Source: Candidatus Nealsonbacteria bacterium (GTDB taxonomy: Bacteria > Patescibacteriota > Minisyncoccia > Minisyncoccales > RBG-13-42-11). From it: DNA of 38,310 nucleotides. A program made the position numbers and the translations under genes. Numbering within the stretch: position 1 is the first letter of the stretch; each line of letters begins with the position of its first letter. The stretch is from the NCBI GenBank assembly GCA_019923655.1, contig JAHXGL010000004.1, positions 1-38,310 of the forward strand, read 5' to 3'. The notes under the pieces are model-generated. The model was not told the DNA's origin. It saw nothing but the letters and a program-made list of their open reading frames with translations, and made no database searches. Below, in pieces: positions 36,339-38,310 of this stretch.

Positions 36339-37441
36339 AAATAATAATAGCTGTTTTAATTTTCGTTCTGTCCGCTGTTCCTGTTTTTCAGCAATCTGAA
36401 ATTTTAGCCGCAAGGAAAATAGACATTAACACTGCTTCTTATGAAGAGCTGCAAGAAATAATCTGGGTTGGCCCGGCTATAGCCCGAAGAATAAGAGAGT
36501 CCAGGCCGTTTTATTCTTTAGACGACATTATTAAAGTGAGGGGTATAGGCAAAAAACGGCTTGAAGACATTAAAAAACAAGGATTGGCTTGGGTTAATCC
36601 GGAAACAAAACCTAGCCCAGAGCTTGAGCGCAAAATACAGCCAGAACAAGAGCAGAAGCCGGTACCAGAGCAAGAACTGCAACCCAGCCCTGAACCGCAA
36701 GCCATTGTTTATCCTTCTAATGTCTTAATAAATGAAATCCTGCCTTCGCCAGAAGGCCCGGACGCTGAAGAAGAATGGATTGAAATTTTTAACCAGAATA
36801 ATTTTGAGGTTAATCTTTTCGGCTGGCAAATAACAGACACTATTGGCAGAACTAAAATCTATGTTTTTCCTACTAAAACCTTGATTGAGCCAAAAAGATT
36901 TTTAGTTCTTAGCCGACCAATCAGTAAAATTACTCTAAACAATGACCAGGATGCCTTAAAGCTTTTACGTCCAGATGGAAAAATTGCTGATTCAGTGAAA
37001 TATGAAAAAGCGCCAAGAGGAAAATCATACAACCGGCCCCTATTAGACAATGACAATTTAACAGACGCAAATAGCCCTGAATGGTTTTGGAGTTCTGTTT
37101 TAACCCCTGGAATGGCAAATATCAGCCCTGTTGTCTTTTCAGCAGAAGAGGCAGTAAAACAAACAGAAGAACAAAAAGCAAAATTTACTGAAGAGCCCTT
37201 AAAAAGAGAGCCTGCCCTGAAATATGGATTAGGGGCTATTAAAGAACAGGTTCATTTTCCAGAGCAACGAAATAAAGTTTCCAAATCCGAATGGATTTGG
37301 AAGACTAAAGTTTCCAAATTCTTTGGGTTTTGGAATGCCCTTGAAAGGAAAAATATGCCTGTTTTCGTAATCGCCTTGGTTGTTGCTCTCTTCTCCGGGA
37401 CAATAATTTTAATCCTTAAAAGAAAAATTAAAACAAGTTAA
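36335..37441 (+). CDS. ComEA-type HhH + lamin-tail-domain membrane protein
   Basis: Signal peptide, 'IDINTASYEELQEI..VGPAIA..VRGIG', LTD 'INEILPSPEG..EWIEIFN..LTPG', C-terminal TM. Confidence 0.85.
   Translation: MKIIIAVLIFVLSAVPVFQQSEILAARKIDINTASYEELQEIIWVGPAIARRIRESRPFYSLDDIIKVRGIGKKRLEDIKKQGLAWVNPETKPSPELERKIQPEQEQKPVPEQELQPSPEPQAIVYPSNVLINEILPSPEGPDAEEEWIEIFNQNNFEVNLFGWQITDTIGRTKIYVFPTKTLIEPKRFLVLSRPISKITLNNDQDALKLLRPDGKIADSVKYEKAPRGKSYNRPLLDNDNLTDANSPEWFWSSVLTPGMANISPVVFSAEEAVKQTEEQKAKFTEEPLKREPALKYGLGAIKEQVHFPEQRNKVSKSEWIWKTKVSKFFGFWNALERKNMPVFVIALVVALFSGTIILILKRKIKTS
37273..37338 (+). repeat. Two 33-bp palindromic units in frame within the gene
   Basis: TAAAGTTTCCAAATCCGAATGGATTTGGAAGAC plus a degenerate second unit. 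47 bp align with 33580-33534 (minus strand), differing only in the loop. Confidence 0.85.
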
Positions 37442-37505
37442 AAAAATAGAAAACAAGAGATCTCCTTGAAATTTTGCCATTTTTCTTTTTAATGTGTATA
37501 AATCT

Positions 37506-38105
37506 ATGAAAGAAAAAATTAAAAACAAAAAAATAGAAAATGAGAATGTAATTTATGTTTTTATTGATGCATCAAATGTTTGGAGCGCCGTAAAGTCGGT
37601 GAAGAAGTTTATTGAATACAAAAAGCTTAAAAATTATTTTAGAAATAATTTTAATGCTAGCAATGTTGAAATTTTTTATTATGACGCCTACCCAAAAGAA
37701 GGAACAAGAGAACATAACTTGGATGGAAAACATAAATTCTACACATATCTCAAGAAAGGCCTTGATTTTACCGTAAGGAAAAAAGAATTGAAAAGAATTT
37801 CTATTATTAGCGAAAATGGAGAATCTATTATGGAAAAAGGGAATATGGATGTGGAAATAACTATTGACGCCCTGCATAATATGAATAAATACGATACAGC
37901 TGTTTTATTTAGCGGTGATGCTGATTTTTTGGCATTGGTAAGTTATTTGAAAAATCGCAACAAAAAAATTTATATTTTTTCATCAAAAGATAATATTTCT
38001 CATGAATTAAAAACTGGCTGTGATGGTTATTTTGACCTAAAAAATATAAATGAATTTTGGGGTAAAGATTTAAAATATCGCATAAAAAAAACTACCCTCG
38101 ACTAA
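37506..38105 (+). CDS. NYN/LabA-DUF88 (PIN-like) nuclease
   Basis: 'FIDASN', 'EKGNMDVEITID', 'SGDADF'. Acidic active-site residues are present. Confidence 0.92.
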   Translation: MKEKIKNKKIENENVIYVFIDASNVWSAVKSVKKFIEYKKLKNYFRNNFNASNVEIFYYDAYPKEGTREHNLDGKHKFYTYLKKGLDFTVRKKELKRISIISENGESIMEKGNMDVEITIDALHNMNKYDTAVLFSGDADFLALVSYLKNRNKKIYIFSSKDNISHELKTGCDGYFDLKNINEFWGKDLKYRIKKTTLD

Positions 38106-38159
38106 GAGGGTAGCCCTGGGATGTATAACCCTAACGGTTCTATGGAAGAACCGAAAGAC
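38084..38159 (-). ncRNA. Predicted ~75-nt sRNA convergent on the NYN gene
   Basis: Promoter TTGACA-N16-TACACT (38193-38166, extended -10), hairpin CGGTTCT/AGAACCG, and terminator CTACCCTC/GAGGGTAG + U8. Confidence 0.65.
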
Positions 38160-38265
38160 ATTATCAGTGTAGCAAGCTAATACCCATTGTCAAGTGTTGA
38201 AAACTAAAAAATCGTAAAAATAGCAAAATTTAGTTTTTGGAAATAAAATATATGAAAATAAATCT

Positions 38266-38310
38266 ATGAAAGAAAAAATTAAAAACAAAAAAATAGGGAC
38301 TTTTCCGAAT
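38266..38310 (+). CDS. Start of a downstream gene (MKEKIKNKKIGTFPN..), truncated by the window edge
   Basis: The ATG lies within the second copy of the 39-bp repeat, and the frame is open to the end of the window. Confidence 0.4.
   Translation, partial: MKEKIKNKKIGTFPN

Follow-up and report, generated by a model that had tools for sequence, protein, structure and literature searches.

Toxin-antitoxin (TA) systems of type III (ToxIN, CptIN, and TenpIN) combine an endoribonuclease toxin with an RNA antitoxin, are mobile, and act in abortive-infection defense; their RNA is encoded upstream of the toxin gene, on the same strand, as a tandem array that is processed by the toxin. Another small RNA that controls a nuclease, RalA, acts together with Hfq through 16 nucleotides (nt) of pairing. 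The ultra-small Patescibacteria, or Candidate Phyla Radiation (CPR), whose genomes are tiny, do not grow in culture on their own, and little is known of their mobile elements and defenses. Here, we describe a candidate RNA-controlled nuclease module from one such organism, a 760-bp unit that consists of the gene for an NYN-domain (PIN-like) ribonuclease and a convergent gene for a small noncoding RNA (sRNA). The stretch of DNA analyzed, referred to below as the window, comprises 38,310 nt and is the whole of contig C15 (GenBank JAHXGL010000004.1) of a “Candidatus Nealsonbacteria” genome (assembly GCA_019923655.1, or G000; 463 kb in 20 contigs, 97.9% complete).

The closest described arrangements are found in type I TA loci. 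According to two papers (PMC7472228 and PMC8167048), the convergent promoters of Fst/RNA II (par of pAD1), TxpA/RatA, and BsrG/SR4 drive transcripts that meet at a shared terminator (Fst/RNA II) or overlap at the toxin 3′ end (TxpA/RatA and BsrG/SR4); the RNA promoter is strong, the loci are often on mobile elements, and the TxpA/RatA duplex is cut by RNase III. The NYN locus has the same layout, but the toxins of those loci are hydrophobic peptides of 30 to 60 amino acids (aa), whereas the presumed toxin here is an NYN ribonuclease of 199 aa and its RNA belongs to an unrelated family. Nuclease toxins under the control of a small RNA encoded in cis or nearly so, as would be the case here, are known from SymE/SymR and RalR/RalA, which PMC8167048 treats as recognized exceptions to the small-peptide rule. 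However, SymR, unlike the NYN-associated sRNA, overlaps its toxin gene at the 5′ end, and SymE and RalR differ from NYN in fold and show no sequence relation to it. The locus also departs from type III, as its RNA is a single-copy convergent gene with its own promoter downstream of the nuclease gene, and the toxin fold is different. A parallel for its mode of insertion comes from restriction-modification units, which are reported to insert with long target duplications of variable length, without other mobile elements, and mostly in naturally competent species (PMC2853133).

A conserved noncoding RNA gene behind the NYN gene

The opposite-strand unit downstream of the NYN gene is a genuine conserved noncoding RNA gene, obligately linked to one NYN subfamily. 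Homologs were collected from 300 genomes of the same order, from contigs representing one genome per species, from metagenome loci, and from viral contigs. In the first set, the protein search returned 13 close NYN homologs (58 to 85% identity), found in 13 genomes from 8 families, and one C-terminal fragment; among 11 further genomes sampled from the family to which the window belongs, none had a close homolog. All public relatives of the gene come from metagenome-assembled genomes of the Patescibacteria/CPR, with names that include Nealson-, Portnoy-, Taylor-, Nomura-, Kaiser-, and Magasanikbacteria, and the sequencing runs that contain the window DNA are groundwater metagenomes. The DNA located 3′ of the close homologs is conserved, and RNAalifold and a separate pair count both support two helices in it. 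A covariance model (R1) built from the sRNA alignment and used to search the homolog loci finds the RNA, tail-to-tail with NYN, behind all 34 close homologs in the one-genome-per-species contigs (65 to 98 bits), behind 13 of the 14 related-genome loci (all but L039, which lies at the end of a contig), and behind 52 of the 56 metagenome loci, where the four misses are contigs that end inside NYN (52 of 52 evaluable loci).

In the 45 distinct sequences of this family, 95.9% of the alignment cells assigned to pairs are in fact paired, compared with 41 to 61% in slid registers, and double changes are seen in 13 of the 22 pairs (114 cells); none of 500 shuffles reached these values. The 139 G.U cells reveal the strand: the structure pairs at 95.9% when read from the minus strand versus 82.3% from the plus strand and therefore belongs to the minus strand. 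A run of A residues precedes the hairpin on the plus strand, which likewise indicates that it terminates minus-strand transcription. The RNA is noncoding, because the ATG at its 5′ end in the window is AGG, GAG, AAG, or some other triplet in the relatives and because its loop lengths vary by numbers that are not multiples of three. A small open reading frame (ORF) on the sRNA strand, the 19-codon frame that starts at this ATG, was rejected, as neither the ATG nor the frame is conserved.

The sRNA promoter is the top promoter-like site of the region (10 of 12 matches in the promoter scan), and the sRNA terminator also ranks first among the minus-strand terminators. Its invariant TTGAC −35 and extended −10 elements are kept, on the strand opposite to NYN, in all 14 loci that were aligned, and the U-tract (T-run) is conserved in the same alignment. 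By itself, the scan is not significant (9 sites versus 6.2 ± 2.2 expected in the window), and the fold of the single sequence has a z score of −2.98; both would be unconvincing alone, and chance is excluded because of the conservation and covariation over the 45 distinct sequences. The window copy of hairpin 1 contains two U.U mismatches and has its core at 38135 to 38153, and the NYN stop codon (38103 to 38105) falls in the loop of the terminator; the 3′ part of the sRNA overlaps the last ~7 NYN codons. The linker, AGGGUAuUACAUCCnAG, and the base of the stem (GUCUU...AAGGG) are at least 90% conserved across loci whose NYN proteins are 56 to 86% identical.

A scan for tRNAs and transfer-messenger RNA detected nothing in the region, and an Rfam scan of positions 37000 to 38310 with E values up to 10 gave no match on the sRNA unit (38082 to 38193). 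Searches of the literature outside subscription journals, on NYN domains in connection with TA systems or antisense RNA and on small RNAs of Patescibacteria and CPR, turned up no description of an NYN-sRNA pairing. Neither Rfam nor the literature searched seems to describe this new family of structured sRNAs, which numbers roughly a hundred members and covaries strongly, or its obligate pairing with NYN. The region is also present, as unstranded contigs, in two metatranscriptome runs of a single study; the contig breaks at 38114 to 38145 are at best a weak hint and were taken as neutral evidence.

These results bear out most of what an earlier note on this DNA had observed. It had described an intact gene with an NYN/PIN fold, followed by a complete ORF-less unit on the opposite strand, within 760 bp delimited by direct repeats; it had placed a promoter of the form TTGACA-N16-TGnTACACT at 38193 to 38166 and a hairpin at 38135 to 38153, had noted the overlap with the final NYN codons, and could assign the system to no described family. 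All these features stand, and the promoter, the two main hairpins, and the covarying structure are conserved behind the homologous genes. Its terminator is real and ends in U8, but the stem has 12 pairs (38117 to 38088) rather than 8. The small GGG/CCC hairpin that it saw at 38118 to 38131 finds no support, since in the family this stretch forms the unpaired, conserved linker, and most members have an A in place of the third C. The coordinates of the features are listed in Table 1.

Table 1. Features of the NYN-sRNA unit and its borders in the window
Feature	Position	Strand	Remarks
Left direct repeat, 39 bp, perfect	37498-37536		Holds NYN start codon and codons 1 to 10
NYN-domain (PIN-like) ribonuclease gene	37506-38105	+	199 aa, intact; Pfam PF01936
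Small noncoding RNA gene, ~78 to 83 nt	38082-38164	−	5′ tail, hairpin 1, linker, terminator; covariance model R1, 94 bits
Intrinsic terminator, 12-bp stem then U8	38088-38117	−	5 of 12 pairs with compensatory changes
Conserved single-stranded linker	38118-38130	−	Family consensus GGUAuUACAUCCnA; columns at least 90% conserved
Hairpin 1	38131-38157	−	10 pairs in the family; 8 of 10 pairs with compensatory changes
sRNA promoter, TTGACA-N16-TGnTACACT, extended −10	38166-38193	−	Promoter scan and 14-locus alignment
Stranded copy of native NYN 5′ leader	38218-38255	+	Alignment scores 40 to 52 versus 24 to 26 for reversed controls
Right direct repeat, 39 bp, perfect	38258-38296		Copy 760 bp from the left repeat
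Start of GGGACnTTTyyGAATTTT element	38297-38310	+	Contig ends here; continues at the loose end of a DNA contig

Linkage and asymmetric loss

The two genes keep a tight geometry. Measured from the 3′ end of the sRNA, the NYN stop codon ends at a distance of −5 to +38 nt in 36 of the 37 intact loci; in the only exception, L032, a 69-nt insert separates the two. No intact NYN gene of the window's clade that lacks the sRNA was found among the genome and metagenome loci examined. Loss of NYN, in contrast, is recurrent: the gene is broken in 8 of 45 loci, by frameshifts (L038, L092, and L094), deletions (L040 and L095), or stop codons (L071, L087, and L091), as well as in 5 of 47 metagenome units, a count that overlaps partly with the former and cannot be added to it. 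The sRNA is intact in every one of these loci. An R1 search of 150 further genomes added two orphan sRNAs, both with promoters (L098, G011:C28 1602-1685, 88 bits; L099, G071:C19 6974-7054, 73 bits), and tblastn with E values up to 10 detected no NYN remnant near either of them. Persistence of the sRNA next to a broken NYN gene or without one, with intact NYN never occurring alone, is what would be expected if NYN were harmful without its RNA, and such an asymmetry is consistent with the pattern typical of TA pairs.

NYN proteins with and without this RNA

The NYN protein matches PF01936 over profile positions 2 to 144 of 145 (E value of 1.7e-22; 81 bits against a cutoff of 24.2). In an alignment of 29 sequences, Asp21, Asn24, Asp115, Asp138, and Asp140, the predicted active-site residues, are invariant, and Asp121 is at least 90% conserved. 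The AlphaFold model (pLDDT 86.1, pTM 0.81) has as its best Foldseek matches the structure 2qip (E value of 7.6e-10; TM score of 0.78 on the target), which a sequence search with the protein also retrieves, and the NYN domain of MARF1 (6fdl and 5yaa). The PADLOC NYN model PDLC01154 matches as well (E value of 1.8e-14). In its domain, acidic active-site residues, and fold, the protein thus agrees with other NYN/LabA-like nucleases (PF01936, 2qip, and MARF1), but it forms a distinct subfamily that carries two insertions, is strictly paired with the sRNA, and is only 29 to 30% identical to the housekeeping NYN proteins of related genomes. In the window, it starts at an ATG inside the left repeat and has the N terminus MKEKIKNKKI instead of the MFNQKNKEI seen in its relatives.

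Relatives from the same family (L103, L104, and L105) encode a housekeeping NYN protein of 168 to 174 aa between rpsO and pnp. In the window genome, rpsO directly adjoins pnp (G000:C19 24266-26367), and the NYN gene of the cassette is the only one that was found.

More distant NYN genes (30 to 46% identity) are not accompanied by this RNA, the best R1 score being 25.7 bits. However, 15 of 17 such loci have a different short convergent unit, with a TTGACA-N17-TGCTATACT promoter and a terminator that abuts the stop codon. The convergent promoter pattern is seen at 39 of 49 patescibacterial NYN ORFs versus 14 of the 148 remaining ORFs (100 aa or longer) of these loci. Accordingly, the architecture of NYN plus convergent sRNA belongs to several patescibacterial NYN clades, each of which seems to have its own RNA. 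Carriage of the cassette by phages was rejected: the viral contigs contain only distant NYN genes (24 to 36% identity), and just 2 of 58 show the pattern.

The site downstream of accB that L031, a member of the window's clade, occupies is taken in two congeners of its host by cassettes of another NYN clade (202 aa), L112 (G301:C11) and L109 (G313:C9), whose convergent sRNA is a separate, unrelated one. The G313 cassette lies between copies of a 113-bp repeat derived from the 3′ end of accB (106 of 113 positions identical).

Insertion and circular permutation of the unit

The unit is mobile. Between its identical 39-bp borders, it contains only the NYN gene and the sRNA gene, with no mobility gene inside. 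In all four family relatives with a match, genes for a pilB-type ATPase, comEA-LTD, and yebC follow each other in this order, the last two 5 to 180 nt apart. Since comEA-LTD adjoins yebC in these relatives, the NYN-sRNA unit appears to be an insertion after comEA-LTD; in the window genome, yebC is at the start of contig C19. Of 44 evaluable loci, 12 have direct repeats of 27 to 173 bp (77 to 100% identical) immediately next to the unit, in a test where control alignments scored no more than 37, one palindrome apart. The same is true of ~15 of 42 metagenome loci, that is, of 18 above the threshold less an artifact (L228), a locus with a high control score (L222), and one in which the repeat does not abut the unit (L190). 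The repeats are made of local sequence, such as the 3′ end of an accB-like gene in L031 and that of trpS in L032, and a congener, G315, provides the empty site for L031, where the repeat is present once and the flanks are uninterrupted. An empty site that could be aligned was not found for the window itself: G001, a genome of the same genus (84% complete), gave no match to comEA-LTD, and remoter relatives cannot be aligned as DNA; the permutation described below points to a circular intermediate instead. The possibility that the right repeat is the start of a second NYN copy was rejected because the sequence beyond it diverges from NYN.

Cassettes bounded in the same way, all of the TA or restriction-modification kind, are found elsewhere in the window genome. 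They carry a PIN gene and a small ORF (C17, 48-bp repeats); a HigB-like gene with a small ORF, and AbiEii with DUF6922 (both on C4, 47-bp repeats); an RHH gene with a HigB/YafQ-like toxin gene (C14, 25-bp repeats that are identical to the first 25 bp of the window repeat); and a D12 methylase gene with unknown ORFs (C1, 49-bp repeats). The genome encodes a single tyrosine recombinase, on contig C16, and no serine recombinase, and neither kind is found in or next to the unit; an adjacent IntI integrase with attI, as in integrons, is thus absent. Restriction-modification units, as portrayed by Furuta, Abe, and Kobayashi (2010, PMC2853133), show the same long local repeats of variable length, the same lack of a mobility gene, and, as for L031, an empty site with one repeat copy. 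The NYN unit differs from them in its cargo, a ribonuclease and an sRNA, and in that its window copy is also circularly permuted; in addition, the window repeat, unlike those of restriction-modification units, includes a motif that is shared with another cassette of the same genome. This mode of insertion has been documented mainly for restriction-modification systems, and the present data provide evidence that TA-like cassettes of Patescibacteria move by long-target-duplication insertion and circular intermediates.

The permutation is seen in the order of parts. In the relatives, a conserved leader (...AGCAAAAATTTAGTTTTTGGAAGTAATT-ATG) directly precedes the NYN start; in the window, alignments with L063, L038, L029, and L065 locate this leader after the sRNA and just before the right repeat. 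From left to right, the window copy consists of a repeat, the NYN body, the sRNA, a spacer, the native leader, and the second repeat. Such an order suggests that a circular or concatemeric cassette recombined with the chromosome within the repeat, and we infer a circular intermediate for the window copy.

Several short sequences recur at the borders of these cassettes. Copies of a GGGACGTTTyyGArTTTT element, the start of which follows the right repeat in the window, are found at C14 30080-30097 and at C4 10104-10121, 10677-10694, and 11790-11807; on C4, the three copies separate the two TA cassettes, which form an array, whereas on C14 and C15 the element lies beyond the repeat on the right. 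The element might be an attachment site or the mark of a hotspot for insertion. The 22-mer AATCTATGAAAGAAAAAATTAA is present in both window repeats (37501-37522 and 38261-38282), twice on C14 (G000:C14 30111-30132 and 30837-30858), and in loci L008 to L025. With up to two mismatches, it was detected in 13 of 60 related genomes, of which six, from different families, have exact copies; the control with the pattern reversed had one match overall. It often directly follows a TGGTAnAAT-like −10 box, its ATG opens unrelated ORFs that begin with MKEKIKK, and three successive genes of G012:C4 start with it. The 22-mer may serve as a site of recombination or as a module for leaderless starts; a role as a DNA uptake sequence was rejected, as the genome has only 4 copies. 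In a contig from DNA run X4, position 38260 runs straight into GGGACTTTTCCGAATTTTTCAAC, which gives a population variant without the right copy of the repeat, apparently through loss of the DNA between two AAAATA words.

Possible functions of the NYN-sRNA pair

We put at about one in two the probability that the unit is a mobile module of Patescibacteria in which an RNA antitoxin restrains an NYN toxin or a nuclease used in defense, which we consider the best reading of the data. In such a module, NYN would be the toxin, and the sRNA, made from a constitutive promoter, would be the antitoxin or negative controller in a type I-like architecture. If transcription of NYN extended into or past the shared hairpin, its mRNA would be fully complementary to the sRNA, and the duplex at the stop codon might be cut by RNase III, which is encoded in the window genome, or might otherwise block productive NYN synthesis. 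Loss of the short-lived RNA would then allow NYN to be made and to degrade cellular or phage RNA. The cassette spreads horizontally and inserts with long local duplications, the window copy having probably arrived through a circular or concatemeric intermediate. As in type I loci, a small noncoding RNA adjoins the putative toxin gene in antisense orientation, and the tail-to-tail geometry, kept across clades with different RNA sequences, speaks for the RNA being antisense to the 3′ end of NYN. The earlier note had likewise pictured an RNA-controlled toxin or defense module; the strict linkage and the mobility of the unit agree with it, whereas for the guide role that it had also offered for the RNA no evidence was found.

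Several observations weigh against an antisense-controlled toxin. A soluble enzyme of 199 aa is unlike the small hydrophobic peptides that are typical of type I toxins. The plus strand lacks a good U-tract after the hairpin that would define the extent of the mRNA-sRNA overlap. With the housekeeping NYN gene gone from this genome, the cassette NYN might serve an ordinary function. Base pairing between the linker and the 5′ region of NYN is not enriched over 41 loci (mean z score of +0.2), and its positions are inconsistent. Finally, the linker and the stem base are conserved beyond the need of a purely cis-antisense role, which points to recognition by a protein.

This last observation supports an alternative that we regard as unlikely, namely, a type III-like ribonucleoprotein in which NYN binds and perhaps processes the sRNA, which would serve as its inhibitor or as a specificity or partner RNA. 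The linker is compatible with protein binding, similar CAUC(C/A)A motifs were noticed by eye just 5′ of the terminator in some sRNAs of other clades, and the RNase fold and strict co-inheritance also fit this alternative. However, the known type III loci have tandem RNA repeats upstream on the same strand rather than a single-copy convergent RNA, and juxtaposition with the stop codon, retained across clades whose RNAs differ, is a prediction of antisense pairing and counts against control through protein binding.

It is quite improbable that NYN is a nontoxic accessory or replacement RNase whose expression is tuned by a cis-antisense RNA and which moves without serving in addiction or defense. 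Such a role would suit the window genome, with no NYN gene between rpsO and pnp, and the occurrence of the convergent promoter pattern at some of the non-NYN ORFs also speaks for it. On the other hand, 10 of 14 carrier genomes (the window's own included) have more than one NYN match, so that most of the other carriers keep a further NYN. Other points against a tuned RNase are the sporadic distribution of the unit, the repeated pseudogenization of NYN with retention of the RNA, the orphan sRNAs, and the form of mobility, which is common to TA and restriction-modification cassettes.

Even less credence, very little in fact, can be given to the idea that NYN and the sRNA are themselves the mobility machinery, with a nuclease, perhaps RNA-directed, that would produce the long target duplications by staggered cuts. 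Repeats that abut about one-third of the units, the circular permutation of the window copy, and the lack of a recombinase in or next to the unit would be in line with it. However, cassettes of the same genome without NYN or the sRNA are bounded alike, and so are restriction-modification units of unrelated bacteria (PMC2853133), which means that the insertion mechanism does not need NYN. The repeats show no consistent match to the sRNA, apart from one 11/12 resemblance noted by eye in the window.

That there is no functional RNA at all, the hairpins being only the NYN terminator and the promoter a chance match, is scarcely tenable: the promoter scan of the window alone is indeed at chance level, but the minus-strand −35 and extended −10 elements are conserved in all 45 distinct sequences, as are hairpin 1, the linker, and the U-tract, with compensatory changes; the covariation and the strand fit of the G.U pairs already contradict it, and the A-run places termination on the minus strand.

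A broader proposal is that of a widespread class of RNA-controlled nuclease modules in CPR, in which each NYN clade would have its own sRNA, recognized directly by the nuclease via the linker as an inhibitor or specificity partner, and the pairs would act as abortive-infection or addiction systems carried on circular cassettes. In this full form the proposal is tentative and on balance doubtful; if true, it would define a previously unrecognized class of modules in the Candidate Phyla Radiation. NYN ribonucleases are candidates for a new toxin family of RNA-antitoxin systems, and the 760-bp pair is small enough for direct testing in laboratory hosts.

Other repeats in the window and its genome

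A 189-bp repeat is found twice on C12 (G000:C12 57268-57456 and 59084-59272) and at several contig ends, including the start of C19 and the end of C5, and it probably accounts for the assembly break between C15 and C19. Near the opposite end of the window, a perfect 191-bp direct repeat (22-212 and 844-1034, 822 bp apart) lies within a minus-strand ORF of ~449 aa that is rich in acidic repeats; the direct repeat looks like an internal duplication of this gene. The 3′ part of comEA-LTD contains overlapping palindromes at 37279-37321 (TTCCAAATCC...GGATTTGGAA), with related copies on C3, C18, and C20. These appear to be members of a dispersed palindromic repeat family, and the summed contig depth peaks at them in all four runs.

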